Below are positions 2,221 to 60,447 of a stretch of 64,000 nucleotides of DNA, piece after piece. Position 1 is the stretch's first letter. Every line of letters begins with the position of its first letter. A program made the translations under genes and the position numbers. The DNA comes from an uncultured Acidobacteriota bacterium. GTDB lineage: Bacteria > Acidobacteriota > Vicinamibacteria > Vicinamibacterales > 2-12-FULL-66-21. The stretch covers positions 64,958 to 128,957 of the forward strand of contig CAVVQQ010000003.1 in the NCBI GenBank assembly GCA_963750475.1. Direction: 5' to 3'. The notes under the pieces are model-generated. The model did not search any database. It had not been told where the DNA came from and worked only from the letters and a program-made list of their open reading frames with translations.

Positions 2221-5200
2221 ATGCTGCGTTTGTTGGCGAGGCTACGAGGGTTGGGCCGCATAGCGGGCGCGACGGTGTGCCTGGCGATGCTGGCGGGTGC
2301 CCCCGCGGCGTGGGCCCAGAGCGACCGGGGAACCATTCAGGGGATTGTCACCGACCAGAGCGGGGCCGTCGTCCCTGATGCGAAGGTGGAGATCACCCAT
2401 ATTGCGACAGGGACGGTGACCACGCTGTCGACCAATCGTCAGGGGCTCTATACGGCCCCGAACCTGTCGGTCGGCGACTACCTCGTGTTGATCACCAAGG
2501 ACGGCTTCGCCCCGGCGACCGCCAGCGGCATCGATCTCCGCACCGGCGTCCAGATTCGCGCCGACCTCGTCCTCAATCCGTCGGGCGTCACCGAAACGGT
2601 GTCGGTCGCGGCCTCTCAGCTCGATTCCTCGACCATCACCAACACGACGGCGCTCTCCGAAAAGCTGGTCAAGGAACTACCGGTCATCGTCGGCGGCAAC
2701 AAACGCGACATCACCGGCTTCCTGCAGAACCTGCCCGGCTTCACTAGCGGCACGACGTTCAACCCGCGGGCGAACGGCGCTAATGTCGGCGACACTGAGG
2801 TCTATGTCGACGGCGGCCGCGGCAGCCAGATGATCTCGCGCGGCTCGCTGGCCGAGAACGGCCCGGTCCTGGAGCAGGTCGGCGAATTCAGCGTCGTCTC
2901 CAACGGCTTCAACGCGGAGTACGGCGGCTTCGGGATCTGGTTCAGCAACGTCACCATCAAGTCGGGCGCCAACCGCTTCTCCGGCAGCGTGTTCGACCAC
3001 TACGGCACCGATCAGCTGAACGCGCGCACGTTCTTTCAGGCGGCCAAGACCAGCTACAAGCAGCACGAGGGCGGCTTCACCGCCGGCGGTCCGGTCCTGC
3101 TGCCTGGCTACGACGGCCACAACAAGACGTTCTTCTTCTCCAGTCTCGGACTCTTCTACTCGCGCGTCGGCTCGAGCGGCAACCTGATTACGGTGCCCAC
3201 CGAAGCGTTCAAGGCCGGCGACTTCAGCGGCCTCGTCGATTCCCAGGGCCGTCAGATCCCGATCTTCGACCCGGCGACGACGCGGCCCGACGGTGCCGGC
3301 GGATTCGTCCGCGACCAGTTTCCGAACAACAAGATACCGGCCAATCGCATCAGCCCCGGCGCGTCGGCCATTCTGGGCTACCTGCCGACGCCGGATCTGT
3401 CCGGCAATATCAGCAACTTCCGGGCGCGCAATTCGCCGACCTGGCCGTACTACGACATCTACACGCCCCTTGTGAAGGTCGACCACAATCTGACCTCGTC
3501 CCAGCGGCTCTCGCTGATGTATACGGCGCAGATTCGCCATCGCGAAATCTGGTCGAACGGCATGGGACCGGACCCGCAGTGGGGCAAGCCGCAGGTCAAC
3601 CCGATCGACAACACCTTCGACCAGATCGCCAACAGCTGGAAGCTGCGGTTGAACCACGACGACGTGATCACCCCGCGGCTCATCAACCACGTCACACTGT
3701 CTCTCGACCGCTACGTCAACCGCGGCCAGAACAAGACGTGGGGGCAGAGCTGGGACACGAAGCTCGGAATCGCCGGGATTCCGAACGACGACGGGTCCTT
3801 CCCGGCGATCAATTACTCGGGCGGGGTCGCCGCGCCGGCCAACCTCGGCCGGGCGTATGACGAGGACTGGAAGGACTTCGGCTGGGGCGTCACGCAGGCC
3901 CTGACCTGGTCGCTCGGCAAACACACGATGAAGTTCGGCGGTGAGCTCGGGCGCTCCGGCGTTGACCGGTTCTTCAGCGGCGGCCGGGCCGGCACCTTCA
4001 CGTTCAGCAACTTCACCACCAGCCAGCCGAACTCGGCATCGTTCGGCTCGTATGGCAACGCCTTCGCCAGCTTCCTGCTCGGCGACGTGTTCTCGACCAC
4101 CGCCGTGATCCCCGTGGACACCAGTCTTCGCCTCGACCGCTACGCCCTGTTCGCGCAGGACGAATGGCGTCCGACCTCGAAGCTGACGCTGTCCTACGGG
4201 CTGCGGTGGGACTATCAGCCGCCATATCGCGAGGTCGACAACAAGATCAGCGCCTTCCTGCCGGACATTGCCAATCCGGGTGCTGGCGGTCTGCCCGGCG
4301 CGCTGGCGTTCGCTTCGACCGACGTCGGCCGCTACGGCCCCAGCTTCCAGGACGGCTGGTACGGCGGCTTCGGGCCACGCCTCGGCCTCGGCTACTCCAT
4401 GACGCGGCGCACCATTCTGCGCGGCTCGTGGGGCCTCTACTACAACGGGACCGGCAACCAGAACTCGGTCACCCCAATCGGCTACCAGGCCAGCCCGACG
4501 TTCTCGTCGGCGAACAACTTCACCCCGGTGTTCAACTGGAACAGCGAACAGTTTCCCGCAGACGTTCCAGTACCCGCCGAATCTCGACCCGTCGTTCGCC
4601 AACGGCCAGGCGGTGAACTACACGCCCCGCGACTCCGCACGGCTGCCGCTCGTCCAGAGCTTCATGGCCGGCGTGGCGCGGGAGGTCGGCCGCGGCCTCA
4701 CCGTCGACCTGAGCTACATCGGCAGCCGGTCGTCGCACCTGGCGCTGCCGGCCAACAACTCGGAACTGAACTACGTCCCGCTGCAGTACCTGGAACTCCG
4801 CAATCTGCTGTTCCAGCCGATCAACTCCGCCGCCGCCGGGGCCGCCGGCTTCCAGGAACCGTTCCCTGGCTTTGCCGGCCAGCGCGGCGCCAACACCGTG
4901 GCGCAGTCGCTGAAGCCCTATCCGCAATACACCTCCATCACCGCCAACTCGACGCGGCTGATGGAGGGTCGGGCGCGGTACGACTCGGTGCAGGTGAAGG
5001 CCAACCAGCGCCTCACGCGCGGGCTGTCGGTGGTGTCGTTCTACACGTGGATGCGCAACCGCAGCAACACCAACTACACCTTGCCGTATCCGGGCGCGCG
5101 ACCCCTGCTCGTTGACCCCGGCACGTCTCCGCACATCTTCTCCTTCAGCTCGTCATACGAGCTGCCGTTCGGCCCCAATCGTCAGTTCCTGTCGGGAAAT

Positions 5201-5686
5201 TCCGGAGTGGTCGCGGCGATCGTCTCCGGCTGGACCGTCGCGGGGTCGCTGCGCTATCAGGCCGGCAACGCCCTGGCCATCACGTCGTCCAATAACCTCT
5301 CGCCGCTCGGCTACGGCATCAAGTACGCCGACCGTGTCGAGGGGGTCGACGTCTACAGGGACTCCCGCAAGGACTTCGATCCGGCGGTCGACCGCTACCT
5401 GAACGCGGCGGCCTTCGCCGCGCCAGCGGCGTTCGCCCTGGGCAATACCGGCGGGCCGCTGGGCTACGTGCGCGGGTTCACGCAGAAGTCCGAGGCGCTC
5501 TCGCTGATGCGGCAGTTCCGCGTCGGCACCCACCGGATCGACCTCGGCATCGACGCCCTGAATCCGTTCAACTTCGTCCGCTGGAACGATCCCAACACCA
5601 ACATCTCGTCGGGCGGCCAGTTCGGGTCGGTGACGGGCACGCAGGGTGCGCGGACCGTGCAGCTGAACCTGTCCTACGGGTTCTAG
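2221..5686 (+). pseudogene. TonB-dependent receptor with a CarboxypepD_reg-like N-terminal domain, carrying one frame change as sequenced
   Basis: The start is ATG 2221, with GGAGG at 2208-2212. The signal peptide ends ...APAAWAQ. The N-terminus GTIQGIVTDQSGAVVPDAKVEITHIATG...GDYLVLITKDGF is followed by a long beta-barrel that ends ...VQLNLSYGF. Frame 1 reads to ...FNWNSEQFP (about 4555). The continuation FPQTFQYPPNLDPSFANGQAVNYTPRD... lies in the frame of ORF 4613..5686, implying one +1 change near 4541-4556. Confidence 0.85.
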
Positions 5687-5702
5687 GGGCACGCGCCAAT
5701 CG

Positions 5703-9260: not shown

Positions 9261-10719
9261 ATGAAGGTTCGTCTGAAAGTTCCCGGGGCGGCCATCGCCG
9301 TGCTGGCGGTCCTGGCCGGCGGCTCCGCCACGATCGAGGGCCGGCAGGCACCGGCCCGGCCGGCGACGTCGGCGACGCCGTCGCTGAAGCCGCTCACGCG
9401 GGCGTCGGCCGGCGAGATTCAGAAGCACGTCGACCGCCAGTGGATCCACGACACGGCAACGCGCGACATGCTCGACCACTGGGTCAAGCACTCGGTCGAG
9501 ACGAACGGCTTCATCCAGGAAAACCTCGACCGCAAGTGGCAGCCGTGGGGCGAGCAGCGCGAAGCGACCGTCAACGGGCAGGGCCGACAGCTGTACAGCA
9601 TGGCCATGGGTTACGAGATGACGCAGTCGAAGGAATACCGCGATGCACTCCACCGCGGCATGTCCTTCCTGCTGACGATGCGCGATCCCAAGTTCGGCGG
9701 GTACTACGACCGGGTGTCGTCGACGGGCGAGGTGATCAACGACAACAAGACCGGCTATAGAGCTTTGCCCTCTACTCGCTGGCCCATGCCGGACGGGTGA
9801 CGGGCGACAAGCGGTACCTGGACGCCGGGATGGAGCTGTTCCGCGTAGTGCGCGACAAGATGCGCGACGGCCCGTTCATCGGCGGGGGCAGCTACGTTCG
9901 CGACTTCAGCGAGCGCGCTGCCGGCGGTCTCTTCGGAGGCGCCGCCCGGGGAACGCCAGGCGCGAGTCCCGCCGGGGCTCCCGGACGGGGTGCGGCCGCA
10001 CCCGCCGCCGGCGCACCGGCAGGCGGCGCCGCGTCGGCGTTCGCGAACCGACGTCACGGGATCAACCTGCACATGTTCGAGGCGCTGCTCGGCCTCTACG
10101 AAGCCACCAGGTCGCCCGAGGTCTGGAAGGAAATCGATGCCGAGCTGACGGCGATCGAACGGCTGTTCGACGACAAGCTGGGCTACCTGCCGGAGTCTTA
10201 CGATGAGACTGGAAGCCGGTCGGTAACCCGAGCGCCAACCCGGGCCACCTGTTCGAGTGGGCGTCGCTGCTCAGCCGCGCCGTCGAACTTGGTGCGGACA
10301 AGAAGTTCATCGCGCTCGGCAGCCGCAATCTCGACCTCGGTCTGAAGAGCTACGACATGGCGGTCGGCGGCCTCGGTCGGCGCAATGCCGCCGGCGAGCC
10401 GGTGCGGATGCTCTGGTGGCCGCAGTGCGAGGTCATCAAGGCGACCGCGACCTACGCCATCCTCCATGGCCGCTCCGAGCTGTGGCCCTACTACCACAAG
10501 ACGCTCGACCTGCTGAAGACCCACTACCTCGACACCGAGAACGGCGGCTGGTTCGCCGACTACGTCGCCGGGCAGCCGCGCGCCGAGCGTGGCGAAAGCG
10601 CGTTCTACAAGGGCTCGGTGGACGGCCCGGAGTGGGGCGCCTATCACCCGATCTCGATGCTCAGCGACGTGTGGCGGATCAGCGACCCGAAGTACACGTT
10701 GCCAAACCGCAGCCGGTAG
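9261..10719 (+). pseudogene. N-acylglucosamine 2-epimerase (AGE) superfamily protein, secreted, with two frame changes as sequenced
   Basis: The start is ATG 9261, directly after AGGAG. Three ORF fragments (9135..9800, 9797..10345, 10357..10719) join seamlessly. The first join reads ...NDNKTGY|FALYSLAHAGRVTGDKRYLDAG (shift about 9760). The second reads ...GYLPESYDET|WKPVGNPSANPGHLFEWASLLSRAVELG... (shift about 10208). The alpha/alpha-toroid-like repeats resemble AGE/cellobiose-2-epimerase family proteins. Confidence 0.75.
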
Positions 10720-41742: not shown

Positions 41743-41768
41743 GGGGGGCCGGCGGGGCGAAGCCCCCC
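41743..41768 (+). terminator. GC-rich hairpin followed by an A/T-rich tract (weak terminator candidate)
   Basis: The stem GGGGGGC pairs with GCCCCCC across a 12-nt loop (cggcggggcgaa), and the hairpin is followed by GGTAAATAAAT. It sits between the Usp/PCP_red gene and the GNAT gene. There is no canonical U-tract. Confidence 0.25.
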
Positions 41769-41777
41769 GGTAAATAA

Positions 41778-42654: not shown

Positions 42655-42693
42655 GCTGGCGATTGTTCGAACGACGGCAGTCCCGGGCAGGAA

Positions 42694-43658: not shown

Positions 43659-44144
43659 AGTTCCTCTGTGTCCCCTGCGACAGTCCGATGAAGCTGCAGA
43701 CCGTCGAGCCCGCCCGAGGGCGGCTCGCTGTCGGTCGTCTATGCCTGTCCCGAGTGCGGCTACGAGATGGCGATGCTGACCAACGCCGTACGAGACGCAG
43801 CTCGTTCAGTCGCTCGGCGTGCGCATCGGGCCCGACATCGCCGGCGGAGCGCTGGCCGGGGCAGCGGCCGAGCCTGGCAAGTGTCCGTTCCCCGGGATGA
43901 TCTCGTCCGCGGCCCCGCAGCCCACAGGCGCCAACGGGGCGACGGAGGAAGGGCGCCCCGGGCCAGACCGACGATCCGAGCCCGGTCCGCTGGACCGACG
44001 CCGCCGAGGCCCGGCTCGCGAACATTCCCGCCTTCGTGCGGCCGATGGCGCGGACCGGCATCGAGAGGTACGCGCGCGAGAGAGGGGTCGCAGGAAGTGG
44101 ACGAGACCATCCTCGACGCGGCCCGCGACTTCTTCGGCATGTAG
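43655..44144 (+). pseudogene. Small zinc-ribbon plus PCP_red-domain protein, with four frame changes as sequenced
   Basis: The sequence reads MKFLCVPCDSPMKLQTVEP|..GGSLSVVYACPECGYEMAMLTN|..YETQLVQSLGVRIGPDIAGG...KCPFPGM...|VRWTDAAEARLANIPAFVRPMARTGIERYARERGV|.EVDETILDAARDFFGM. Successive pieces lie in frames 2, 0, 1, 2, 0 (position mod 3). All four shifts are +1, at about 43712, 43788, 43955 and 44092. Confidence 0.6.
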
Positions 44145-44207
44145 GCTGCGTTCCTGCGCGAGTCCACACGGATCTGCGCGGATTTGCACGGATTGACACC
44201 GGTCTGA

Positions 44208-45671
44208 ATGGCTGCACCGATGAACGCGACCCCGTTCGCCCGACCGTACGTCATCTCCTGGAACCTCACCTACCGCTGCAACCTTGCCTGCGAGCACTGC
44301 TATCTCGACGCCGGCGGCGCGCCACAGGTCGGCACCGAGAACTTCGCCGATCGGAGCGAGCTCGGCACCGAGGAATGCTTCAGGGTGATCGACGACATCG
44401 CCGCGTTCGCGCCCGAATGCGTGACGATCCTGACCGGCGGCGAGCCGCTCCTGCGCCGCGACATCCTCGAGATCGTCCAGCGCGCCGCGGAGCGCGGGCT
44501 CTGGGTCGTCGTCGGCACCAACGGCGTGCGCATCACGGAGAACCGTGGCGAAGCGACTGGCCGATGCCGGCGCGCGCGGCCTCTCGCTCTCTCTCGACGC
44601 GCTCGATCCCGATCGCCACGACCGGTTCAGGAACGTGCGCGGCGCCTGGCGGAACACGGTCGAGGGTGCGGAGATCCTCAACCGGACCGGGCTCCCCTTC
44701 ATCGTCCAGACGACCGCGGGCTCGCACAATCTCGGCGAGCTCGACGCCATCGCCGACTTCGCGCACGACCGCCTTGCCGCGAAGGTCTGGAACCTCTACT
44801 TCCTCGTACCGACCGGGCGCGGCCAGTTCGTCTCCGACATCACCCCGGCGCAGTACGACGACGTGCTGGCGTCGCTCTACCGGATCCAGCGGAAGTACGA
44901 CCGCCGGATGCTGGTCAACGCGAAGTGCGCACCGCACTACATCAAGACCGTACTCGAGCGCGCCCGCGGCCTGGGCGAGGGGCCGGAGGGTAGTCCCGCG
45001 GAGCGGGACCCCCGAGCGAGCGGCGGTGGCACCCGCGAGCACCGGAGGATGCCGGGCAGGCTCCCGGCCCGCCCTCGATCAGGACCTACTCCGGAGGGGC
45101 CGGTGGATGCCCGGCGGGAACGCACTACATGGGGATACGGCCGAACGGCGATGTCACCCCCTGCCCGTATCTGCCGGTCTTCGCGGGTACCCTTCGCAGC
45201 GCCAGTCTGCGGACCTGTGGACATCATCGGCGCTGTTTGCCGACATCCGCCGCCGCACCGCGCTCGGCGGCCGCTGCGGGGCGTGCGAGATGAACGGCCA
45301 CTGCGGCGGCTGCCGCGCCCGGGCGTACGGGATGACCGGCGATGTGATGGCCGAGGATCCACTCTGCACCCACATCCCCGGCACGTTCGCCGGCTCGCCG
45401 CTGCTGGCAGTCCGCGGCGCGTCCCCGGCGCCGGTCGGGCGGGACGAAGCGCCGGCCAGTGCGGGAGATCCAGTACGGTCCCGAATCGCCTCGGGCGATT
45501 GCGTGGGACGATGCCGCGGCGGCGCGCATGAAGAGGATCCCGGTGTTCGTCAGGGGCATGGTCACCACGGCCGTAGAGGAGTCCTGCCGCAAGAGCGGCC
45601 TCGACCGCGTCACCGTCGAGGAGCTCGACCGCATCCGCGCGCGGATGCCGACCCCGAAGATTTTCGGGTGA
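44208..45671 (+). pseudogene. Radical SAM / SPASM-domain enzyme (AhbD/NirJ-like tetrapyrrole-modifying type) with a C-terminal PCP_red domain, carrying five or more frame changes as sequenced
   Basis: The radical SAM cluster motif is NLTYRCNLACEHCY. Further segments are ILTGGEPLLRRDI, VVVGTNGVRITEN|.AKRLADAGARGLSLSLDALDPDRHDRFRN and ...VWNLYFLVPTGRG...NAKCAPHY. The SPASM-like part is GCPAGTHYMGIRPNGDVTPCPYLP...LWTSSALFADIRRR...GRCGACEMNGHCGGCRARAY...DPLC. The final domain is IAWDDAAAARMKRIPVFVRGMVTTAVEESCRKSGLDRVTVEELD (ORF 45459..45671). The shifts lie at about 44540, 44960-45100, 45198 and 45455. Confidence 0.8.
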
Positions 45672-45688
45672 GGCTGGATCTGAAGGGG

Positions 45689-47240
45689 ATGACTGCAATC
45701 CTGCAAAGCGCCCGAAGCGCGACAGCCCTGACGCTGATCGTGCTGGTGTGCACGGCGACAGTTGCCAGGTCGCACGGTCCGGCGGATTCCGATGCCTCGG
45801 GCGCGTCAGACAGCGCCACCGTGCCACTCGCCCCGGGCGGGGCGATCGACTCACCCGGGCCGGGCAGCGTCGTTGGCCCGTATTTCACGGTCACCGGGTG
45901 GGCGATTGAGGCTGCCGCGTCGACCGGGACAGGCGTCGACGGCGTCTATCTTTGGGCGTACCCGGCGTCCGGCGGATCAGGCATACCTCTCGGGTGGGCC
46001 GACTACGGCCGCACCCGACCCGATGTTGCCGACCAGTCCGGCCTCCGGTTCAGCAATTCGGGCTATTCGCTCGCCACCGGCATCGTCAATCCCTCGGGCT
46101 CGTACACCATCGTTGCCTACGTTCACGACACAGCGGCCGGGGGCTTCCATCAGCAGCAGGTTGTGACGGTCACGACCCAGCAGGACGCCCGGGGCGCCAT
46201 CGACCCGCCGGCGGGCGGTTTCACCGTCCCGCCGGCGTTCGCGCTGACTGGATGGGCGATCGACACCGGCGGTTTCGGGTCAGGCGTCGACGGCGTGTAC
46301 TTGTGGGCGTTCCCCTTCTCCGGCGGGGCGCCTTTTCCCGTCGACACAGCGGCCACGTATGGGCTGGCGCGGCCGGATGTGGCGTCGCAGGTACGGCAGC
46401 CGGTTCAGGAATTCGGGCTACAGCATCAACGTGGCGAGCCTGGCGCCCGGCAGGTACGTTCTCGTTCCGTTCGCCCATCCGACCGTCGGCGGTTTCGTTC
46501 AGACGCAAAGTGTCGTGGTGGAAGTGCAACTCCGTCCGCACGGGGCGATCGATTCACCCGGCCCGGACAGCGTGATCGGCCCGTGGTTCACGGTTACCGG
46601 ATGGGCGATCGAGTCCGGCGCGTCATCGGGCACGGGCGTGGACGGCGTTTACATCTGGGCGTATCCGTCCGGGGGTGGAGCCGGCATACCACTCGGGTGG
46701 GCCGACTACGGAAAGACACGACAGGATGTGGCCGGCCGGTACGGCAGCCGCTTTCTCAACTCGGGCTATTCGCTCGCCACCGGCATCGTCAATTCCTCTG
46801 GCTCGTATACCATCGTTGCGTACGTTCACGACGCACTCGCCGGAGGCTTCCATCAACAGCAGGCCGTGACGGTCAGGAAACAGCAGGATCCCCGGGGAGC
46901 GATCGATCCGCCGGCCGGCGGTTTTGCGGTCTCACCGTCTTTCACGCTTACTGGATGGGCGATCGACGCCAACAACCAACTCCCGGGTCCGGGCGTCGAC
47001 GGGGTCTATCTGTGGGCGTTTCCAGTTTCGGGCGAGCCACCTTTCGCGGTCAATTCATCCGCCGCGTATGGACTGGCCCGTTCGGACGTGGAGTCGCAGT
47101 ATGGCCCGTTCTTCAGGAATTCCGGCTACAGCGTCACTGTCTGGAACCTGCCCGCGGGCGTCTACGTCCTCGTTCCGTTCGTCCATGAGAGTCCGGGCGG
47201 CTTCTTCCGGACCCAGAGCGCCGTCGTCACGGTGCGATAG
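45689..47240 (+). pseudogene. Secreted protein made of four tandem ~115-aa beta-sandwich-like domains (A-B-A'-B'), with one frame change as sequenced
   Basis: The start is ATG 45689, followed by a signal peptide (MTAILQSARSATALTLIVLVCTATVA). The repeating pattern is GAIDxPxxGxxVxxxFTxTGWAI...GVDGVYLWAxP...YGxxRxDVxxxxGxxFxNSGYS...GxYxxVxxxH. The frame of ORF 44036.. joins ORF 46359..47240 near 46390 (...RPDVASQ|YGSRFRNSGYS). Confidence 0.7.
45838..47240 (+). repeat. Coding tandem duplication, two units of about 705 bp
   Basis: Unit 1 starts near 45838 (GGGGCGATCGACTCACCCGGGCCGGGCAGCGTC...). Unit 2 starts near 46543 (GGGGCGATCGATTCACCCGGCCCGGACAGCGTG...). By eye the units show long runs of identity, for example GGGTGGGCCGACTACGG and TCGGGCTATTCGCTCGCCACCGGCATCGTCAAT, interspersed with substitutions. 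Confidence 0.8.
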
Positions 47241-47399: not shown

Positions 47400-48527
47400 T
47401 CACCACCAGCGCTGGGCCCACACCAGCGAGACCGCGACCTGGCGCTCCCACTCCTCGTTGGCGAAGGACGTGTACGCCTCGTACCCGCCTCGCACCGTGA
47501 AGTTCGGCGTGACTCGATAGCCGAGGGTGGCTTCGGCGCTTGTCGCGGTGCGCCGGCCCGGAAACGGGCCGGTCAGGACGGGGGACGACGCGTGGACGGC
47601 GCGTCCGGCTGCGAACCACCGGGGTGTCAGGGTGCGGACCGCCTGCAGATTGAAGCCGCGCGCGACGGCAGGCGTTCCGGTCGTGTCGAACCGATCGATG
47701 ATCCACTCACCGGCAAGCCGGGTGTAGCCGATCGCGTATTCCCCCTCGAGGTTGACGACCGTGGCGCTCTCGTCAGGCAACGGAGTGCCGACCGACGAGC
47801 TGTTCACGCCGTACCCGTCGCTGTCGTAGGGAAGCGAGGCGGGTGCCAGAGCATTGTGCCGGTATCGCCCTCGCGCCACCCCCGCGCCGAACCTCAGGCC
47901 GGGCAGCGGCGTGACGCCGCCGCCCAGGACCAGCTGCGCCGCTGCCGGCTTCCGCGATCGGCTCAGCACGCTCCGCGTCTGTGCCGGCGTCGCGTCGGTC
48001 ACGCCGCCGCGCAGATCCCATCGTGCGCCCGAGGCGGTCACGATCGCGCCGAGCGGATACCCGCCCGACATCAGCCGCACGCCGTCGAAGTGCCCGTCGA
48101 ACGCCGGCAGCGGCGCGTAGTAGTAGAAAGGCGCGCCGATCGTCGGGTTGCGATCCGGCCGAAGTTCGAGAGTCGCCAGGCCGAGCGGCGACGAAATGAT
48201 TCCGGCGTCGAGCCGGACGGGCACCCGCGTCGACGATACGTAGCGCAGCTGGAGCTGATACATTTCGGCGCCCCAGTCGCCGCCAGGCAGCCGCCGCGCC
48301 CAGGGACGAATCACGACGTCCCAGCCGCGGCCGGCGCGGATCGTGCTCACCGCGTCGAAGATCAGAAACGGGTCGTTGTTCGCCTCGGATGTGACGCTCG
48401 CCGAAACGACCGCCTCCATGGCCACCCGGCCGGTCACATCCTGCGCGGCTGCCTCGGGCGCCGCGGCGGCCCCCAGCGTCAGGGCGCAGCCGAGCGCGAA
48501 GGCCGGGATGCGGGTCAACAGTCTCAT
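47400..48527 (-). CDS. Outer-membrane beta-barrel (porin-like) protein
   Basis: The start is ATG 48527 (MRLLTRIPAFALGCALTLGAAAAPEAAAQ signal). Alternating amphipathic strands end in aromatic residues (...QVAVSLVWAQRWW). The start overlaps the stop of the upstream HD-GYP gene (ATGA at 48524-48527). Confidence 0.65.
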   Translation of the reverse strand: MRLLTRIPAFALGCALTLGAAAAPEAAAQDVTGRVAMEAVVSASVTSEANNDPFLIFDAVSTIRAGRGWDVVIRPWARRLPGGDWGAEMYQLQLRYVSSTRVPVRLDAGIISSPLGLATLELRPDRNPTIGAPFYYYAPLPAFDGHFDGVRLMSGGYPLGAIVTASGARWDLRGGVTDATPAQTRSVLSRSRKPAAAQLVLGGGVTPLPGLRFGAGVARGRYRHNALAPASLPYDSDGYGVNSSSVGTPLPDESATVVNLEGEYAIGYTRLAGEWIIDRFDTTGTPAVARGFNLQAVRTLTPRWFAAGRAVHASSPVLTGPFPGRRTATSAEATLGYRVTPNFTVRGGYEAYTSFANEEWERQVAVSLVWAQRWW

Positions 48528-50219
48528 GCCCGGCGGACCCTCACCAGCACGGGAACGGCCGGAGAGTGCAGCGGTGTCGAGGCCGACAGGTCGATGTCCG
48601 GAAGCGCCGTCGCCAGCGCCTGCACCACCTCGGCGTCGAACTGCGTGCCGGCGCAGCGCCACAGTTCACGCAGGCCTTCCGCGCTCGGCCGCGCCGGCCG
48701 GTAGGAGCGGGCGCTGGTCATCGCGTCGAAGGCATCCGCGACATGGACGATGCGCGCAACCAGCGGGATCGAAGTGCCGCGCAGCCCGTGCGGGTAGCCG
48801 CGGCCGTCCGGCTGCTCGTGGTGCAGCTCGACGATCGGCAGGTGCGGCTCGAGGAACGGCACGCTGCGCAGGATGCGCGCCCCGACCTCGGGATGCTGCT
48901 TGATCATCTCGTACTCGGCGGCGGTCAGCGGCCCCGGCTTCATCAGCACCTGATCGCTGATGCCGATCTTGCCGATATCGTGCAGCAGCGCTCCGAGCCG
49001 CAGCACCTCGAGCTGCGGCTCGTCGAGCCGCAGCGATCGGCCGATCGCCAGCGACACGGCGCTGACGCGCTCGGAGTGGCCGGCGGTGTACGGATCGCGC
49101 GCGTCGAGCGCCAGCGCCAGCGCCCGAATCGTTCCGAGATAGGCGCTGAGCGTTTCCGCCTCGGCTGCCTTGACCGACTGGATCATGCTGTTGAAGGCCG
49201 CGGTGAGCGTGTCGACTTCCAGGCTGTCGCCGGTGGCAATCAACGGATGGTCGAAGTCCCGGGTTCGCGTCATGCCGGACAGCGATGCCGACAGCGTGTC
49301 GATCGGCCGCGCAATCGTCCGCGACAGCCAGATACTCGCCAGTCCGGCCAGCGCGAACGCCCCCAGCGCGATGACGCCCATCGTCCGCAAGGCGCTCCGC
49401 ACCGCCGGCCGCGACGAGGCGTCAATCGAATCGAGCACGTAGACCTGCGCGACCCCATGGTCGGCCAGCCGGCGGACGGCATACTGCGCCGCGTCGAGCG
49501 TCACCGTCTCCTGGTCGGCCATGGTCCTGAGCTTCGCGGGTGTGATCGCCATGCCCGGCGCCGACGGCAGCGTCGACGCGACGACGCGGTCGCCGGCGAC
49601 GATCAGCGCCCGGGCCCCCGACAGGTCCGACAGTTCGCGGGCATAGCGATCGTCGAACGCGCTGGCGAGGCGCAGCGTGCCGATCTCGGTGCCCTGCAGC
49701 ATCACCGGCACCGAGGCGATCTGGAAGACCCCCGAAGGGGTCGTGACGACGGCGTTGTGGCTGCCGGGAGGCGCGTCGGCGGCGGCGTCGAGCCAGCCGT
49801 CAGCGAGGCGCCCGGCGACCGCCAGTGGACGCCCGTACCTGATCGCGCACTTCGAGCACGTCGGGATGAATGCCGGCGGCGAGCTTGTCCAGTTCACGCG
49901 TGATGGTCTTGACGAGATCGTCCCGCGCGGCGTCGGTCGTCTGCAGCTCGGTCTGGTACGTGTCCAGCGCCGCCTTCAGCGTGGAGTTCTCCGCGAGCAT
50001 GGCGACCTGCGCCCGCAGCTCCCGGCCGCGCCGTTCTTCGAGCGCGCCGAGCAGCCGCTGGCCGGTCTCGAGCTTGTCGACCACGCCGGCCCGCACCCGG
50101 TCGCTGACGTTGAGGGTCGCGACGAGGAGGACCGCCGACAGCACGAACGCCACCGTCGCCAGCGTCGCCACCAGCGTGCGGGTGACGAAACGGGGAGGCG
50201 TGTGCGTGCCGCGCGCCAT
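48524..50219 (-). pseudogene. Membrane-bound HD-GYP-domain c-di-GMP phosphodiesterase with a periplasmic sensor and a HAMP-like linker, with one frame change as sequenced
   Basis: ORF 49800..50219 holds the N-terminal TM helix and sensor. It joins ORF 48524..49897 at ...IHPDVLEVRDQ|YGRPLAVAGRLADGW (shift about 49840). A second TM helix (VIALGAFALAGLASIWL) is followed by the HD-GYP signature GHSERV...LHDIGKIG...HHEQPDGRGYP. Confidence 0.85.
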
Positions 50220-51957: not shown

Positions 51958-52759
51958 CTATCGGAAGATGTCCGATTCTCCCTTGAGCTTCTCTTCTTCG
52001 TCCGCCATCCATTTCTGGAACTCCTCGGCGGTCTGGACGGTGACGAAGCCGCGCATCCGGTAGTGGCCGAGGCCGCAGAGCTGGGCGCAGGCGATCTCGT
52101 ACTGGAACTCGGCGTTCCCCGTCCGGGCCCGCATCTCCTCGGTCGTGACGTCGGGAACGAACCAGATGGGGATCGTCAACCCGGGGACGGCGTCCTGCTT
52201 GACGCGAAACTCCGGCACGCCGAAGCTGTGGATGACATCCTTGCTCCGCAGCCTGACGATCACCGGCTGGTTGACGGGCAGATAGAGCTGATTGAGCGTC
52301 GTGATGTCGTCCTTCGCCGGCGGGATCCGAGCGGTCGAGCCCGAGCGGGTTGGTCTGGAGGTCGATCAGGCTGATGTCCGTCCGGCCGAACGTCCCGTCC
52401 GGCCCGGCATAGTGGACGTTCCAGGCGAACTGCTCGGCGGTGACCCGAACGACCAGCGCCTCGCTCTCCGGCGGCATGCGGTCGACGCGCGCCGCCCAGA
52501 GCGGGACCGAGAACGCGAACAGGAGAATCGCTTCGATCACGGCGACGCCAATCTCCGAATAGCTCGAAGCGTGCGACTTGACGCCGGTGTAGTCCGCCAC
52601 CGGGTGGCGCGATCGGCGGAAGCGGAACAGGATGTAGGCGAGGAACGCTCCCCAGCCGACGAACAGGATCAGCATGAACACGTGCATCCAGCCGATCAGG
52701 CTGTCGATCTGCGCGCCGTGAGCCGAGGCGAGCGGCGGGAGTCCGAGCCATTCAGTCAT
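51958..52759 (-). pseudogene. ctaC: Haem-copper (aa3-type) cytochrome c oxidase subunit II with a CuA site, with one frame change as sequenced
   Basis: ORF 51815..52897 and ORF 51958..52263 join at ...LGLDRSDPAG|KDDITTLNQLYLPVNQPVIVRLRSKDVIHSFGVPEF (shift about 52320). There are two TM helices. The CuA ligands are in HSF...CAQLCGLGHYRM. The start is taken at ATG 52759 (MTEWLGLPPLASAHG), but the frame stays open upstream. Confidence 0.85.
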
Positions 52760-53043
52760 GATGTCCTCGGCGACCTCTGGAGCTTCGACCATTCGGTCGT
52801 CGAGCTCGATGTCCGCGAGGCGCTTGGCGCGCCTGCGCAGATAGAGAAAGAAGCCCGCGAACCCGCCCTGCACCGCCAGCGTGATGGCCAGCATCACCAG
52901 CGACGCCGAGCTTCGTGCCGTCGATCATCGACGTCTCTTCCGCGCCGAAGCACACCGGGCAGGCGAGAAGCGTCGAACCGCCGCCAATCGCGACGGCTGC
53001 GGCGGTGGCGGCCAGCCGGATCCAGCCCCGTGCGGCGGCTCAT
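52760..53043 (-). pseudogene. Small two-helix membrane protein with a CPVCFG motif. It is frame-disrupted and shows no stop before ctaC, so the boundary is unresolved.
   Basis: From ATG 53043 the sequence reads MSRRT|GWIRLAATAAAVAIGGGSTLLACPVCFGAEETSMIDGTKLGV|.VMLAITLAVQGGFAGFFLYLRRRAKR..., spread over three frames. It then runs in frame into the ctaC N-terminus. Its start overlaps the upstream stop (ATGA at 53040-53043). Confidence 0.4.
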
Positions 53044-53242
53044 CGCAGCGTCCTCGTCTTGCGCAGGAACCACGAGTCGTAGACGAGCAGCCCGACCGAC
53101 AGCGGCGAACGCCGCGATCGCCGCGAGCAGCGGCCCGCACCCCGTGCCCCGGCCGTAGACCGCCCAGGCACCAGACCCCGAACAGCACCGCGAGCGCCGC
53201 GGAGAGGAGGATCAGCAGCGCGTGGAACCACCTGAGGTTCAT
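53040..53242 (-). pseudogene. Small two-helix membrane protein of unknown function, with two frame changes as sequenced
   Basis: The sequence reads MNLRWFHALLILLSAALAVLFGVWCLG|..YGRGTGCGPLLAAIAAFAAVG|LLVYDSWFLRKTRTLR. The start overlaps the subunit IV stop (TGATG at 53240-53244). Confidence 0.35.
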
Positions 53243-53562
53243 CAGTGGATCCAGAAGCCGTTGTGAACGGTGACCACGGGAAGGGCCAGCAGCGCGACGA
53301 AGAAGGCGGCGGTCAGCGAGCAGGACCGCGTAGATCAGCTTCTTCTCGGAGATCAGGTGCATGAAGTAGCACGCCACCAGCGATCCCTTGACGGTCGCGA
53401 CGAGCAGCGCCACGCGTGATCGCCGACGTGCACGGGCAGATGGACGCGTGAAATCGCCACGGTGATGATCGTCAGCGCCATCAGCGCGACGAAGACGGTG
53501 ACGTAGACCCTGACGTGCCTGTCGATGTCGGCGGCGTGGTCGCGTCTGTCATGGCGTGGCAT
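53242..53562 (-). pseudogene. Cytochrome c oxidase subunit IV-like small membrane protein, with two frame changes as sequenced
   Basis: The sequence reads MPRHDRRDHAADIDRHVRVYVTVFVALMALTIITVAISRVHLP...|ALLVATVKGSLVACYFMHLISEKKLIYAVLL|LTAAFFVALLALPVVTVHNGFWIH. The motif KxxLVxxxFMHL is typical of bacterial caa3/aa3 subunit IV (CoxD/CtaF-like). Confidence 0.6.
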
Positions 53563-53567
53563 GCCGC

Positions 53568-54164
53568 CTACAGAAGGTAGAGGATCGGGAACAGGAAGAT
53601 CCAGACCAGATCCACGAAGTGCCAGAACAGGCCGGCGTGCTCGACCCGGTTGGTGAACCACTCCGGGTTGGTCTTCCACAGCTTCGCGCCGGGCCCCCAG
53701 AAATAGGCGTTCACCGCCATCCCGCCGAGGACGTGCAGCATGTGCAGGCCGGTCAGGGTGAAGTAGATGCGCCAGGAAGTTGCTGGTGCTGGGATACAGG
53801 CCGTCGTGGAACTTGTGGCTGTACTCGAAGTACTTGACGCACGAGGAAGACGAACCCGAGCAGGATCGTCGTGCCCATGTAGATCCGGAACGTGCCGAAG
53901 CGGCGCCGCACCAGCGACGCCCAGGCCATGACCATCGTGACCGACGATGAAATCAGGACGAGCGTGTTGAACGTCGCCAGCGGGACATTCAGAATCGTGT
54001 CCCCCCGCGGCCAGCTCGGCGCCCCGGTCCGGATCAGGATGTAGCTGGCGAACAGGGCGCCAAACAGCATCACCTCCGAGGCCAGGAAGAGCCAGATGCC
54101 GATCTTGCCGTTGGTCAGGCCGGTGTCGGGGCGCGACCTCGACGGTGTAGGGAATGTCCATCAT
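53568..54164 (-). pseudogene. ctaE: Cytochrome c oxidase subunit III, with three frame changes as sequenced
   Basis: The sequence reads MMDIPYTVEVAPR|.DTGLTNGKIGIWLFLASEVMLFGALFASYILIR...TILLGFVFLV|.VKYFEYSHKFHDGLYPSTSNFLA|IYFTLTGLHMLHVLGG...GLFWHFVDLVWIFLFPILYLL. The shifts lie at about 54125, 53838 and 53772. Confidence 0.85.
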
Positions 54165-54236
54165 TCACCGAGGGGCTGTGCCCCTCGGACTCCCCGGCAC
54201 GCGCCCGCGCTCGCTGACGGTTTCTGCATAAGCTCC

Positions 54237-56014
54237 TCAGGCCTCGAACTGCGGCGAGAAGTCCTTCGCCGCGCCGGGAACGCTGTACTCGTAGGGCCCG
54301 CGGTAGCGCTTCCGGCGGCGACGAGCGAAATTGCCGTGCGGCGGCGGCGACGGCGCCGCCCACTCGAGCGTGGTCGCCTGCCACGGGTTGGCGCCGACCT
54401 TCTCTCCCTTCCGGATGCTCCAGAAGAAATTGAAGATGAACGGAAGCTGGAACAGCGCCATGATCCACGCGCCCCACGACGACACGACGTTCAGGTGGCA
54501 GCACCGGCTGCGCGAACGCGTAGCTGCGCGCCGCCGTCGTACAGCCGCCGCGAGATGCCGGCCAGCCCGACGATGAACATCGGCATGAAGATGACGTTCA
54601 TGCAGACGAGCGAGCCGCAGAAATGGATCTTGCCGAGCGTCTCGTTCATCATCCGGCCGGTGGCCTTCGGGAACCAGTAGTAGATCGCCGGCGAACAGCG
54701 CGAAGATCGTCCCCGGCGCGACGACGTAGTGGAAGTGGGCGATGACGTAGTAGGTGTCGTGCAGCGTGGATGTCGGCGACGTTCAGGCCGAGCGGCAGCC
54801 CGGTCAGCCCGCCGATGCCGAACATCGGCAGGAACGCCAGCGCGAACAGCATCGGCGTGTTGAAGCGGATCGACCCGCCCCACAGCGAGATGATCAGCGC
54901 CGTCAGGATCACGACCGACGGGATCGAGATGATCATCGTCGTCGTCTGGAAGAACGCCGCCATCGCCGTGCCCATGCCGGTCATGAACATGTGGTGCGCC
55001 CAGACGATGAACGACATGAAGCCGAGGAAGACGACCGAGTAGACCATCGAGCGGTAGCCCCACAGCGGCTTGCGCGTGTTGTTGGCGATGATCTCGGCGA
55101 CGATGCCCATCGCCGGCAGGATCAGGACGTAGACCTCGGGGTGCGCGAGGAACCAGAACAGGTGCTGCCAGAGCAGCGGGTTGCCGCCGCCGGCGCGCGG
55201 TCAGGACCTGGCCGCTGACGACCAGGCCGCTCGGCAGGAAGAAGCTGGTGCCGGCGAGCCGATCCATCAGCTGCATGATCGCCGCCGCTTCGAGCGGCGG
55301 GAAGGCCAGCAGCAGCAGGAACGCGGTGACGAACTGCGCCCAGACGAAGAACGGCAACCGCATGAACGTCAGCCCCTTGGCGCGCAGCTGGACGATCGTG
55401 ACGATGAAGTTGACCGCGCCGAGCAGCGACGAGGTGATCAGGAAGACCATGCCGACGAGCCAGATCGTCTGGCCCGGCGCCGGCGATGATCGACGAGCGG
55501 CGGATACGAGGTCCAGCCGCGACTGCGCCGCGCCGCCGGGCGACGACGAAGCTGGCCAGCATCATCACGCCGCCGAGGAAGATAGAACCAGTAGCTCGCC
55601 ATGTTCAGCCGCGGGAACGCCATGTCCGGGGCGCCGATCTGGAGCGGCAGGACGAAGTTGCCGAAGCCGCCGACGGCGAGCGGCACGACGCCGAGGAACA
55701 CCATGATCGTGCCGTGCATCGCCCCGAGCTGGTTGTAGAACTCGGGCAGCATCATGCCGCCCGGCATGCGCGCCTCGCCGAGGAGCCTGCCGAGCAGCGG
55801 CAGCGGCGCACCCGGATAGGCGAGCTGCCAGCGCATCAGCATCATCAGCGAGAAGCCGAAGAGCAGGAACAGCAGCCCGGTGACGGCGTACTGGATGCCG
55901 ATGACCTTGTGGTCGGTGGAGAAGACGTAGCTGCCACCAGAAGCCCAGCGGCTCATGGGTGGCGTCGTGCGCGACGTGCGGCCTGGGTACGGCGACAGCA
56001 GCGGGGTCACTCAT
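54237..56014 (-). pseudogene. ctaD: Cytochrome c oxidase subunit I (A-family haem-copper oxidase), with about ten frame changes as sequenced
   Basis: The protein is assembled from ORFs 55565..56014, 55438..56010, 55122..55568, 54491..55450, 54649..55110 and 54237..54485. Segments are MSDPAAVAVPRPHVAHDATHEPLGFWW|.YVFSTDHKVIGIQY, then ...MHGTIMVFLGVVP and ...GWTSYPPL.... These are followed by [26 protein letters not shown] and ...FIVWAHHMF. The series ends with ...[15 protein letters not shown], ...[10 protein letters not shown] and ...[21 protein letters not shown]. All six canonical His ligand contexts are recognisable. Confidence 0.9.
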
Positions 56015-56045
56015 GCAGCTGTTCTCCCGACGTCTGGTTCGAGGG

Positions 56046-56789: not shown

Positions 56790-56979
56790 CGCAAACCTCG
56801 TTTCCGTCGTGACGGGTGAACGCAGCGTCGGCTCAGTCTGGAGTGGGCCGACTCTACACCGGCCCCGTCGTCCGCGCAACCCCCTTGGTCGCCGGGGCCG
56901 TCGATGGTCGCCTGTCGCATCGCGGACGCCCTCCCAATCGAGTCTTGTCGAAACCCCGCCTCGAGCCTAAGATGGCGCC

Positions 56980-58588
56980 GTGATGCACACGAGCGGTCGG
57001 ACCGGCTGGCGTGTCGCGACGGTGGCCGCGCTCCTGGCGGGCGCGGGCATGACCGCGCTGGCCTCGGACTTCCTCACCGAGGGAGTCGACAACGCGCGCA
57101 CCGGCTGGGTCCGCGACGAGAAGATCTTCACCACGGCGAACGTCGCGCAGACGACGCTGCTCTGGAAGGTGAAGCTCGACAGCACGCCGCGGGCGATGCA
57201 CAACCTGTTCGCGCCGCTCGTCGCCGAACGCGTCACCACCGCCCAGGGGCCGCGCGAGCTCGCCGTCGTCGCCGGCGTGTCGGACGACCTCTTCGGTATC
57301 GACGTCGCCACCGGCCGGCAGATCTGGCACCGCCGCTTCGACAGCACTCTCGAGAATCCGGGCGGCACCACCGACACGCTCTGCCCGGGCGGCCAGACCG
57401 CCGTGCCGACGATGGCGCAGACCTCGCCGGGCACGCTACACCATCTATGCGGTGTCGTGGGACGGCCGGCTGCGCCAGGTGAACCTCGCCGACGGCCAGG
57501 ACGCCGCGCCGCCCGAGAAATTCATCCCCGGCGGCGGCAAGCCGTACGCGCTGAACCTGCACAACGGGCGTGATCTACACCGCCACGGCGCAGGGCTGCG
57601 GCGGGCTGACGAACGCCTTCTACTCGTTCGACCTCGCGTCGCGCCGCGCCAGCGCCTTCATCCCGGCCGGCGGCGGCCTGTGGGGACGCCGCGGCGCATC
57701 GATCGATCCGGAGGGCCGGGTCTACCTCGGCACCGGCGACGCCCAGTTCGATCCCGCGACGCGGCGCCTCGGCAACGCCATCGTCGGCGTCAAGCTCGAC
57801 GCCAGCAAGCAGCTCCAGCTCGTCGATTTCTTCGGCGCGCCGAACGCCAACTGGCTGTGGCGCCGCGACCTCGACGTCAACACGACGCCGGTGGCCTTCG
57901 ACGCGCACGGCCGCAAGTTCCTCGTCGGCACCAGCAAGGAATGCCGGCTGTGGCTGCTCGATCGCGAGGCGCTCGGCGGCGAGGATCATCGGACCACGCT
58001 GCAGACGACGCCGCTGCTCTGCAACGACGCGCAGGCGTTCGACGCCAGGGGCGATCTGGGGCGCGCTCAGCGCCTGGCAGGACCAGGCCGGCACGTCAGT
58101 GGGTGCTGGCGCCGTTCTGGGGACCGGTGAGCAGGGACTTCAAGGCGCCGATCGAGCACGCGCGCCCGGCCGGCGGCGGCGTCGCCGCCTTCAAGCTGCA
58201 GCAGACGCCGGCGGCAAGCTGGCAGCTCGACGCCGGCCTGGCTGTCGCGCGACATGGACCTCGCCGAAGAGGCGATCATCGCCAACGGCGTCGTGTTCGC
58301 CTACGCCGCCGGCGAGGACGCGTCGCAGACGATGCCGGACAAGGCGTGGGACGAGCCGGGCGGCCCGGTCTACGGCGGCGGCCTCAGCTCGGGCCCGGCG
58401 CGGCGCGTGCCGACCTCGCGGCGCGGCCGCGCTCTACGCGCTCGACGCGCAGACCGGCAAGGAGCTGTGGTCGAGCGGCAGCACAGATCGAATCGTGGAA
58501 TCACTTCAGCGGGTTGACCGTCGCCAACGGCCGCGCCTACCTCGCGACGTTCGACGGCGTCCTCTACTGCTTCGGCATTGCCCGGTAA
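56980..58588 (+). pseudogene. Secreted PQQ-like / BamB-like beta-propeller repeat protein (paralog 1), with seven frame changes as sequenced
   Basis: The start is GTG 56980 or ATG 56983, followed by a signal peptide. The sequence begins [31 protein letters not shown]... and [16 protein letters not shown]...SPG|[21 protein letters not shown]...LHNG|[12 protein letters not shown]. It continues ...[13 protein letters not shown]...[15 protein letters not shown]...|[14 protein letters not shown]|[11 protein letters not shown]...|[23 protein letters not shown]...|[18 protein letters not shown]|[32 protein letters not shown]. The shifts lie at about 57432, 57566, 58045, 58093, 58225, 58420 and 58478, all +1. 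Confidence 0.7.
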
Positions 58589-58602
58589 GGGCGGAGACAC
58601 TG

Positions 58603-60447
58603 ATGCGCGCGAACTTCGCTTGACGATCGTTCGTCCTCGCGGCCGCGCTGGCGGCGAGCGCCGCCTTCGCCGCAGGTCGGCCGCGGCGGCACCGCAGTGG
58701 CTGACGGCGCTCGGGCGACGCGCAGCGCACGTCCTGGGTCCGGAGCGACGACCGCATTTCCGTGCCGAGCGATGTCGAAGCCGGGCTTCGCAGCTGCAGT
58801 GGAAGGCAAAGCTCGACAACCGTCCCGCGCGGCCCGCACGGCCCCGGCCAGGGAGTGACGGCGACCGGCGTGACGCTGTTCGTGCCGATGTCGCTCGTCA
58901 CCGGCAGCTCGAACACCGTCTTCGGCATCGACAACGACATCGGCCACATCGTCTGGCAGCGGCAGTTCCCTGGGACGCTCCCGGCGCCGGGCGCAGGCTG
59001 CCCCGGCGGTACCCTCGCCAGCGCGACCCGCATCGTCCCGCTCAACGACACCACCACCATCCGGCCGGTATCCGACGCCGGCCGCGGCGTCGTCGGCTAT
59101 CGCAGCGTGATCGGGCAGCCCGGCGAGGGGGTGCCGGTTGAAGGCCGGGCCGGCGGACCCGCTGCCGCGAGTCCCGCGCCACCGGCAAATGAGGGGCGGG
59201 GCGGCCGCGGGTCAGCGGCGGCCGCAGCCGCGCCGCCACCTCCGCCCCCCCCACCCGCGTCGGGCGGCCAGGAGGCGGACCGCATTCCCGGTTCGTCCCG
59301 GGGCGGCGAGAAGACCGAAGCCGAACGCATGGCGGACGCCTACGGGTACGGCTTCCTGTTCAAGCCTTCCGGTGTCGTCTACGTCATCGCCAGCGACGGC
59401 ACGCTCCACGTGCTCGGCCTGCCCTCGGGGAAGGACATGCAGCGGCCGGCGCCCTTCCTGCCCGCCAACGCGCGATGGTCGTCGCCAATCGCGATCGGCA
59501 CGACGCTGTATGCCGCCACGGCGGGGGGTTGCGGCGGTGCGCCGCATGGCATCTGGGCGATCGATCTCGACAGCGACACGAAACCGGTGGTGTCGTGGAA
59601 GACGGGGGGCGGACCGGTCGTCGGCGCCGTGGCATTCACACCGGACGGCACCCTGATTGCCGCAATCGGGGCGGGGACGGCCACCGGCGACGGCAAAGCC
59701 AACGCGATTGTCGCGCTCGATCCGCGGACCCTCGAGGTCAAGGACTGGTTTTCACAGCCGGCCGCGGACTTCGTCACCGGGCCGACGATTCTCAGGCACA
59801 ACGGTCAGGATATCGTCGCCGCGGCGACCAGGGATGGACGGGTGTGGCTGCTCGATGCGAAATCGCTGGGCGGGGCCGGGCACGGCACGCCGCTGCACGT
59901 GTCGAAGACGATTCTTGGAACGGGCGCGGTCGTCAGCGCCGACGCGCTCGCGGCGTGGTCCTCTGCGCCCCCAGCCGCCGCGCCAGCCCCTGGGGCACAA
60001 GCATCGCCTGGAGACTCGGCCACGTGGATCCTGCTGCCGGCCCGCGGCCGGCTGGCGAGCGGAATGCCGACGACGAACGGAGCGATTGCGACCGGCGCCG
60101 TCGTCGCGCTGAAGCTGACCGGTAACGGCAGCGGGCTGGCGCTCGAGCCGGGCTGGGTGTCCCACGACCTGGCCGCCCCGGCGACTCCCATCATCGTCAA
60201 TGGCGTGATCTTCGCGCTGGCGACGGGTGCGCCGGCGGCGGCCGGCGGCCGCGGCACCCCGGCAGTGCTTCATGCCTATGACGGCGCGACCGGGGCGGAA
60301 CTGTGGACCAGCGGCAACGCGATGGCGACGTTCGCGTCGCCAGGCAGCCTGTGGGTCGGCTACGGCCAGGTCTATGTCGGCGGCCAGGACGGAACGATCC
60401 ACGCCTTCGGCTTCAACGACGAGCGCCGCCCGACCAGCGCGCCGTGA
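58603..60447 (+). pseudogene. Secreted PQQ-like / BamB-like beta-propeller repeat protein (paralog 2) with a Pro/Ala/Gly-rich insertion. The 5' 250 nt are disrupted and the rest is intact.
   Basis: ATG 58603 has GGAG upstream. The N-terminus reads MRANFA-TGA-RSFVLAAALAASAAFAAG, with an in-frame stop at 58621. The following pieces lie in successive frames: PQWLTALG / DAQRTSWVRSDDRISVPS / MSKPGFA / LQWKAKLDN / PRGPHGPGQGVTATGVTLFVPMSLVTGSSNTVFGIDNDIGHIVWQRQF. There is then one clean frame from about 58850 to 60447, including AIDLDSDTKPVVSW, ALDPRTLEVKDWF, RDGRVWLLDAKSLGG, LHAYDGATGAELWTSG and GQDGTIHAFGF. Confidence 0.7.

Follow-up and report, generated by a model that had tools for sequence, protein, structure and literature searches.

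The window, by which we mean the whole 64,000-nt stretch of DNA analysed here, carries genes for an outer-membrane barrel and a GlcNAc 2-epimerase-like protein in its first part, followed by a cytochrome bd-like subunit with c-type cytochromes, a haem-copper oxidase cluster and a PQQ beta-propeller gene (Table 1). Many of these genes are interrupted by frame breaks of a single base, which are concentrated in three blocks.

Distribution and direction of the frame breaks

Frame changes were counted by frameshift-aware protein-to-DNA alignment against the intact ORFs of relatives, and by MAFFT DNA alignments with 2-7 relatives. In this way 70 frame-changing events were located between 34.6 and 58.85 kb. 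Together with five isolated earlier sites, this agrees with the approximately 60-70 frame changes proposed in a sequence-only reading of the window, and the spacings measured in the three blocks likewise match its one shift per 100-400 nt. Nearly all shifts in 34.6-46.4 and 57.4-58.5 kb had been described as +1, a direction that was borne out at the DNA level, where single-base insertions private to the window sequence outnumbered deletions by 50 to 2. The short run at 58.68-58.83 kb, previously read as -1, is in fact also +1, as the frame order relative to the proteins of relatives is 2→0→1→2→0→1 (58.63-58.83 kb).

At the five early sites, the Viterbi path of a codon-usage hidden Markov model (HMM) switches frame at exactly the places that had been named, and three of them are backed by split Pfam domains: OMP_b-brl_4 profile positions 1-508 and 473-838 fall in two frames around 4552, and on the two flanks of 9759 and 10205, GlcNAc_2-epim positions 1-82 are in another frame than positions 209-327. 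The stretches said to read cleanly do so: there are zero frame breaks in 24-34 kb, where the HMM calls (24207, 26668 and 27987) are gene boundaries, and no HMM events in 58.85-64 kb. Alignment with a G003 protein gave two -1 calls (62584 and 63789), but these are without HMM support, and the G003 loci give frameshift-like calls too.

Except for stops that terminate the stop-to-stop reference ORFs, the alignments cross no in-frame stop, again as claimed. The TGA that had been singled out is indeed present, but it is probably out of the true frame owing to two nearby indels, because the N-terminus of the relatives matches another frame across these positions. The coding capacity of COX1 is recovered when 11 bases are skipped, giving an open frame of 588 aa that covers 100% of the database relatives (~585-600 aa); three additional insertions in this gene (54306, 54316 and 54326), spaced exactly 10 nt, are jointly frame-restoring. 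No independent assembly of the same species or intact copy was found, the best database match of the read-through COX1 being 90% identical. An Rfam scan of the window gave no match.

Table 1. Frame breaks, affected genes and clean stretches in the window (gene identities in block 1 from Pfam matches of intact orthologues).
Feature	Position	Strand	Events and remarks
TonB-dependent-receptor-like outer-membrane barrel gene (~2263-5683)	4552	+	isolated +1 break (HMM)
GlcNAc 2-epimerase-like gene (~9288-10698)	9759 and 10205	+	two isolated breaks, both -1 (HMM)
Gene without family match	14985	+	isolated frame switch; coding signal alone, no Pfam evidence either way
Upstream of thioredoxin-like domain	23846	+	isolated frame switch; coding signal alone
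Clean stretch	24300-34400		G016 orthologues align without frame change; HMM calls are gene boundaries
Stretch with block 1	34.6-46.4 kb		30 events (conservative), ~1 per 390 nt
Dirty block 1	34678-46391	+	at least 30 frame-changing events: ~28 single-base insertions, 2-3 deletions
Deletions in block 1	40083, ~45015, 45208
Cytochrome bd-like subunit I	34444-36352		insertions ~34677-34684, 35159, 35433, 35544
c-type cytochromes (block 1)	36325-39411
USP/PCP_red protein (block 1)	39348-41617
GNAT (block 1)	41772-42651
Mrp/ParA NTPase (block 1)	42658-43734
Small PCP_red protein (block 1)	43630-44141
Radical SAM/SPASM enzyme (block 1)	44150-45668
Intermediate stretch	46.4-52.3 kb		1 event, at 49835
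HD-GYP/HAMP gene (48527-50219)	49835	-	isolated single-base insertion (G); rest of 46.4-52.3 kb clean
Stretch with block 2	52.3-56.0 kb		25 events, ~1 per 150 nt
Dirty block 2, haem-copper oxidase cluster	52315-55931	-	25 single-base insertions
COX2-like gene	51961-53205		5-6 insertions
Small ORFs	53.3-53.43 kb		3 insertions
COX3	53571-54161		insertions 53770, 53839, 54135
COX1	54240-56044		insertions 54499, 54526, 54687, 54767, 55198, 55477, 55494, 55519, 55541, 55583, 55931
Intermediate stretch	56.0-57.4 kb		0 events
Stretch with block 3	57.4-58.85 kb		14 events, ~1 per 100 nt
Dirty block 3	57436-58824	+	14 single-base insertions, every one +1
PQQ beta-propeller gene	56946-58585		insertions 57436, 57566, 58053, 58096, 58229, 58425, 58483
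Gene after the PQQ gene	~58603-60444		insertions in its N-terminal part, ~58632, 58672, 58694, 58713, 58765, 58790, 58824
TGA	58621-58623	+	7 codons past the ATG of the gene that follows the PQQ gene
Clean stretch	58851-64000 (58.85-64 kb)		0 events; HMM events none

Frame breaks across the genome and in essential genes

The phenomenon is not confined to the window. The HMM detected 4,796 frameshift-like events in the 5.24-Mb genome (~0.9 per kb), and they occur on all three of its contigs (1.32, 0.96 and 0.49 per kb in C1, C2 and C3, respectively) rather than in a particular pathway. Control loci of G016, a 100%-complete relative, gave 0-0.14 events per kb; the dirty blocks of the window have 3-10 per kb, against ~0.1 per kb in the G016 loci. 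Despite there being only three contigs, marker completeness is 57.3% (contamination 0.05%), a pairing of high contiguity with low completeness that is typical of long-read indel artefacts. Few contigs and low completeness are likewise combined in further genomes of high contiguity within the genus.

Event counts per 5 kb are bimodal, and approximately 276 patches (median 3 kb, 90th percentile ~9 kb) that make up 22% of the genome contain 88% of the events. Event density climbs weakly and monotonically with GC content, reaching 2.0 per kb at >76% GC compared with 0.77 per kb at 66% (Spearman 0.17), a trend insufficient to account for such sharp patches by GC-biased short-read dropout. Unpolished repeats were rejected as well, since the window has no near-identical copy in the genome, and the one repeat within it is a tandem pair of 76% identity (45.8-47.2 kb). 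The single rRNA operon lies outside any patch and is clean against Rfam where the alignment is shown, with 16S and 23S scores near the maximum. As regards genus conservation, the dirty loci include the conserved rpoB/rpoC, purine operon and oxidase genes, and the first 22 kb, which are accessory, count as clean. Two conserved stretches (47.4-50.9 kb and 25-28.6 kb) are nevertheless clean, contrary to an equation of dirty with genus-conserved DNA, and three random 20-kb samples were mixed.

Single-copy essential genes are broken too. The rpoB family model was matched as 9 pieces over three frames, with 13 insertion events placed by the HMM, whereas rpoB of G016 is a single ORF of 1,439 aa. A further 14 own-specific insertions were found in rpoC, which lies with rpoB in C2:1871170-1881000, and ~55 in purB/Q/L/F/M/N. 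As RNA polymerase and the purine operon are equally riddled, the breaks are most unlikely to be part of the DNA of a living organism.

Character and probable origin of the extra bases

Comparison with orthologous loci, which had been suggested as a check, showed that none of the 2-7 relatives aligned has the extra bases. Isolated insertions exceeded deletions by 134 to 8, and the inserted letters were mostly C (61) or G (49), with 13 T and 11 A (~80% G/C). A coincidence of shift sites with homopolymers or GC runs, also put forward for checking, was not observed: the run length was 1 at 29 of 36 insertions (first set), and the inserted base equalled its neighbour in 21-24% of cases versus 48% for simulated random insertions. 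Such contexts were therefore rejected as the cause, and the errors in runs that mark the homopolymer subtype (nanopore, 454, Ion Torrent) are not seen. There is no sharp sequence motif at the insertion sites, position-specific composition being flat besides the G/C richness. Alternating GC contexts (GCGC, CGCG, ACGC) are mildly favoured, ~2.6-2.9 fold, which could instead reflect context-specific basecalling or consensus error.

The position of the extra bases relative to sequence variation is more informative. With the alleles of relatives used as a proxy for polymorphism, the column adjoining an insertion was variable in 73% of cases versus 43-47% in the nulls (n=140; p ~1e-6 to 2e-8), an association that is statistical and not per-site. 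The inserted letter equalled the relatives' alternative at that column in 46% of cases versus 17-22% in simulations (p ~4e-9 to 1e-6). Both trends had the same direction in all three regions tested.

Based on these observations, we consider it very probable, judging from the sequence, that the frame breaks are consensus-building errors in a long-read metagenome-assembled genome and not mutations of the organism. The preference for uncorrected indel errors over gene decay expressed in the sequence-only reading is thereby supported. Since the extra bases cluster at positions variable among relatives, the pattern speaks for a consensus of mixed genotypes and less for low coverage as such, although both the mixed reads as the cause and the long-read sequencing are inferred. 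In the putative mechanism, single extra bases, chiefly C or G, would have entered the contig in patches of ~1-9 kb, within which the organism's own reads were stacked with those of another, closely related genotype. A substitution between the genotypes would then be turned by the aligner or consensus program into an insertion plus a deletion, with both letters kept adjacent, so that the sequence grows by one base and the frame shifts. The excess of insertions over deletions and their patchy distribution are also what collapsed strains would leave. If the breaks are artefacts, we rate this doubled-allele route as somewhat better than an even chance. Three observations count against it: roughly half of the insertions differ from the relatives' alternative letter, several rpoB insertions are at columns invariant in both relatives, and slots adjoining third codon positions are not enriched (17 of 24 insertions versus 16 expected).

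The same artefact might also stem from plain noise, that is, low long-read depth or failed polishing through which random insertion errors survive with no second genotype involved. The patch lengths of 1-9 kb are comparable to those of reads, an in-patch density of 0.3-1% is plausible for a consensus of very few noisy reads, and the weak, steady rise of density with GC would fit, as would the sites that lack the alternative-allele pattern. Frameshift correction, moreover, lifts the completeness of metagenome-assembled genomes most in low-coverage contigs (PMC8103633). However, agreement with a neighbouring base should be about twice as frequent among random insertions as seen here, such insertions have no reason to favour variable columns or to carry the alternative letter, and the homopolymer signature is absent. 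We therefore regard plain noise as possible, but the less likely origin.

The breaks resemble the indel errors known from long-read assemblies (nanopore MAG frameshift correction, PMC8103633; Kastor, PMC12007338) in that conserved genes are interrupted by single bases, fragment counts are inflated, essential genes are affected and completeness is depressed in a highly contiguous assembly. The classic nanopore signature consists of homopolymer-length errors in which deletions are common, whereas here nearly all events are insertions, outside homopolymers and in patches covering about one fifth of the genome. A parallel to a mixed-genotype consensus is the allele-specific assembly of Trypanosoma brucei, as collapsed allelic variants bring indel errors and apparent frameshifts into long-read assemblies (PMC8445201). 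In that case nearby allelic variants cause misaligned reads and hence indels in the collapsed consensus; here, similarly, extra bases adjoin variable positions and are often the alternative letter. That system is, however, a diploid eukaryote with known haplotypes, while in our bacterial metagenome bin the second genotype is inferred from the alleles of relatives, and about half of the sites are without the pattern.

A very different possibility is that the insertions are real, and that hundreds to thousands of genes, both terminal-oxidase loci included, were recently inactivated. The bases are, after all, present in the deposited sequence. In genome decay of the Mycobacterium leprae type, nonsense mutations, deletions and relaxed selection are seen and essential genes are spared. 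Although many broken genes with still recognizable remnants are common to both cases, that signature is missing here and essential genes are not spared. Dirty genes are as similar to G016 as clean ones (85-92% amino-acid identity), dN/dS of COX1 (0.25) is within the range of its clean neighbours (0.11-0.27), and no nonsense mutations accompany the frameshifts save the TGA discussed above. Real insertions would also leave rpoB, rpoC and the de novo purine pathway dead through some 4,800 events strongly biased towards insertion. They would avoid the homopolymers and simple repeats in which slippage takes place in living cells, and would form kilobase-scale patches abutting perfectly clean DNA, with no mutational rationale for the link to the relatives' alternative letters. 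We consider this explanation highly improbable.

A still fainter prospect is recoding, i.e. bypass of the extra bases by programmed +1 ribosomal frameshifting or by transcript editing that deletes nucleotides, which has only the uniform +1 direction in its favour, given that the sites are not conserved in any relative or orthologue, lack a common slippery or stop-codon motif, are patchy genome-wide rather than gene-specific, and mostly leave the old frame open for tens to hundreds of nt beyond the shift. The chance that the extra bases are truly in the living population, either by a very recent genome-wide burst of templated single-base insertion or by an unknown bacterial recoding or editing bypass, is in our view very small.

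Implications for the genome and for its oxidase genes

The significance of the consensus errors is that of a data-quality warning only. Around one fifth of the genome would contain 3-10 insertion errors per kb, and until this species representative is re-polished, its gene calls, pseudogene counts, completeness and metabolic inference should be regarded as unreliable. Non-homopolymer G/C insertions beside variable sites, in kilobase-scale patches, can serve as a useful diagnostic, applicable without reads, that distinguishes mixed-genotype from homopolymer errors. The metabolic inferences that should not be relied on include the seeming loss of the cytochrome bd-like and haem-copper oxidases. 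As the breaks appear to be assembly insertions, ~4,800 genome-wide and present even in RNA polymerase, these oxidase genes are almost certainly not dead.

Frame breaks in the window

Intact open reading frames of related genomes, chiefly of G016 (a relative that is 100% complete), were compared with the window using a frameshift-aware protein-to-DNA aligner, and MAFFT alignments with 2-7 relatives served to place each event at the base level. The union of both alignments yielded 70 frame-changing events in 34.6-58.85 kb, in line with the approximately 60-70 frame changes estimated in the sequence-only reading, and none in 56.0-57.4 kb or past 58.85 kb.

Distribution of the frame-changing events in the window
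Position in the window	Number of events
34.6-46.4 kb	30
49835	1
52.3-56.0 kb	25
57.4-58.85 kb	14

The five earlier sites proposed in the same reading were recovered by a homologue-blind codon-usage Viterbi model (hereafter HMM), which switches frame at 4552, 9759, 10205, 14985 and 23846; three of the five are backed by Pfam domains split across frames. The TGA reported at 58621 is indeed present and, as stated before, there are no other in-frame stops crossed by the alignments, save the ends of stop-to-stop reference ORFs. The run near 58.63-58.83 kb, previously described as -1, is actually +1, as are nearly all other breaks. Near the 3' end of COX1, single-base insertions of G, C and C (54306, 54316 and 54326) are spaced by exactly 10 nt and jointly restore the frame, leaving about 7 garbled codons.

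Genome-wide scale and essential genes

The source genome (5.24 Mb, 69% G+C), in which the window occupies C3:64958-128957, consists of only three contigs, with a marker completeness of 57.3% and a contamination of 0.05%. After dropping gene-boundary-like switches, the HMM called 4,796 frameshift-like events in it, i.e. 1.32, 0.96 and 0.49 per kb on contigs C1, C2 and C3, respectively; the rate obtained with the same model on four G016 loci was 0-0.14 per kb. Event counts per 5 kb are bimodal across the genome, and 88% of the events fall into approximately 276 patches (median length 3 kb, 90th percentile about 9 kb), which make up 22% of the sequence. The insertion-rich blocks of the window are ordinary members of this patch set.

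Essential genes are also affected. The rpoB family model was matched in nine pieces in three frames, with 13 insertion events called by the HMM, while the G016 gene is a single ORF of 1,439 aa. Insertions specific to the source genome number 14 in rpoC and about 55 in the purB/Q/L/F/M/N operon. As an organism with broken rpoB, rpoC and purine operon would not be viable, the breaks must be absent from its DNA. Moreover, signs of decay are lacking: the affected genes share 85-92% identity with G016, the same as the clean genes, the dN/dS of COX1 is 0.25 versus 0.11-0.27 in its clean neighbours, and essentially no nonsense mutations were seen. The earlier preference for indel errors over gene decay is thus upheld, and the frame breaks, judged from sequence comparison, are almost certainly an assembly artefact and not a biological feature.

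The single rRNA operon (C2:1049113-1054850; 16S, two tRNAs, 23S, 5S) lies outside the patches, has near-maximal Rfam scores, and shows no scattered single-base insertions in the part of the 23S alignment displayed; heavily disrupted DNA stops about 7 kb upstream. In the short-read assembly of G016, contig C107 stops where rpoC starts, about 1 kb downstream of rpoB; the next contig, C134, begins inside rpoC and overlaps C107 by about 260 bp of the query. This suggests that, in these communities, the conserved region is difficult to resolve, as would be consistent with interference between genotypes.

Relatives from the same genus are for the most part fragmented metagenome bins. The contiguous genomes tend to be less complete (G001: 20 contigs, 67%; G014: 10 contigs, 64%; G012: 60 contigs, 70%) than the fragmented short-read bins (84-100%), and HMM calls reach 0.3-0.75 per kb in two loci each of G003 and G015 versus about 0.1 in G016. 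Sibling assemblies probably carry the same error syndrome, which makes them imperfect references. Low completeness of long-read MAGs, rising once frameshifts are corrected, has been documented (PMC8103633).

Origin of the extra bases

The isolated events comprise 134 insertions that no aligned relative shares (C 61, G 49, T 13, A 11) and only 8 deletions. Coincidence with homopolymers, which the sequence-only reading had proposed to check, was rarer than expected by chance: the inserted base equals a neighbour in only 21-24% of cases versus 48% for simulated random insertions, and both homopolymer errors and slippage mutations were rejected on this ground.

The insertions show a mild preference for alternating G/C, and in many alignments the window has GC or CG where relatives show a G/C-variable column. 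Two nulls, i.e. random insertions and non-homopolymer insertions of equal base make-up, were re-aligned by MAFFT. Of the real insertions, 73% adjoin a column varying among relatives (43-47% in the nulls) and 46% match an alternative letter at that column (17-22% in the nulls), with p-values of about 1e-6 to 4e-9 (n=140). The window, the purine operon and the rpoB/C region are all biased in the same direction. This is consistent with a consensus in which reads from two related genotypes would have been blended and both alleles of a SNP written in tandem, so that an extra base arises, though not all sites are accounted for. Errors of this type have been described for collapsed alleles (PMC8445201). 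Since about half of the insertions lack the alternative-letter pattern, some of those in rpoB occupy invariant columns, and no skew in codon phase was found in a small sample, plain low-depth noise is likely to contribute alongside the blended consensus.

The terminal-oxidase loci

Pfam analysis of intact orthologues bore out the presence of two terminal-oxidase loci. In the second, a PQQ propeller protein is encoded next to the COX2-like, COX3 and COX1 genes, which precede it. Removal of 11 single bases from COX1 gives an open frame of 588 aa, which covers 100% of database relatives sized about 585-600 aa; no same-species assembly was found among these, and a relative with 85% identity is labelled Candidatus Eisenbacteria in a public source. 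A 47-nt GC-rich palindromic element between COX3 and COX1 (54168-54214) is found dozens of times in G015 and G018 (85-92% identity), whereas the source genome has a few weak copies.

The first locus (34444-45668) encodes a cytochrome bd-like subunit I without a cydB partner beside three c-type cytochromes, one of them bearing an EB_dh-like domain, together with PCP_red-domain proteins (including a USP/PCP_red protein), GNAT, an Mrp/ParA NTPase and a radical SAM/SPASM enzyme. A tandem duplication in head-to-tail arrangement, about 705 bp long (45821-46519 and 46524-47227, 76% identity), closes the locus. A GC-rich element of about 95 nt between the USP/PCP_red and GNAT genes (41677-41771) resembles REP or MITE-like sequences and has no Rfam match; many copies occur in relatives at 85-93% identity (G007, G018, G011 and others), with a single good second copy in the source genome (C3:47940-48013). 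The gene order of this cluster is kept across the genus. It may constitute an uncharacterised respiratory module, and merits study in a relative whose sequence is free of errors, for instance G016.
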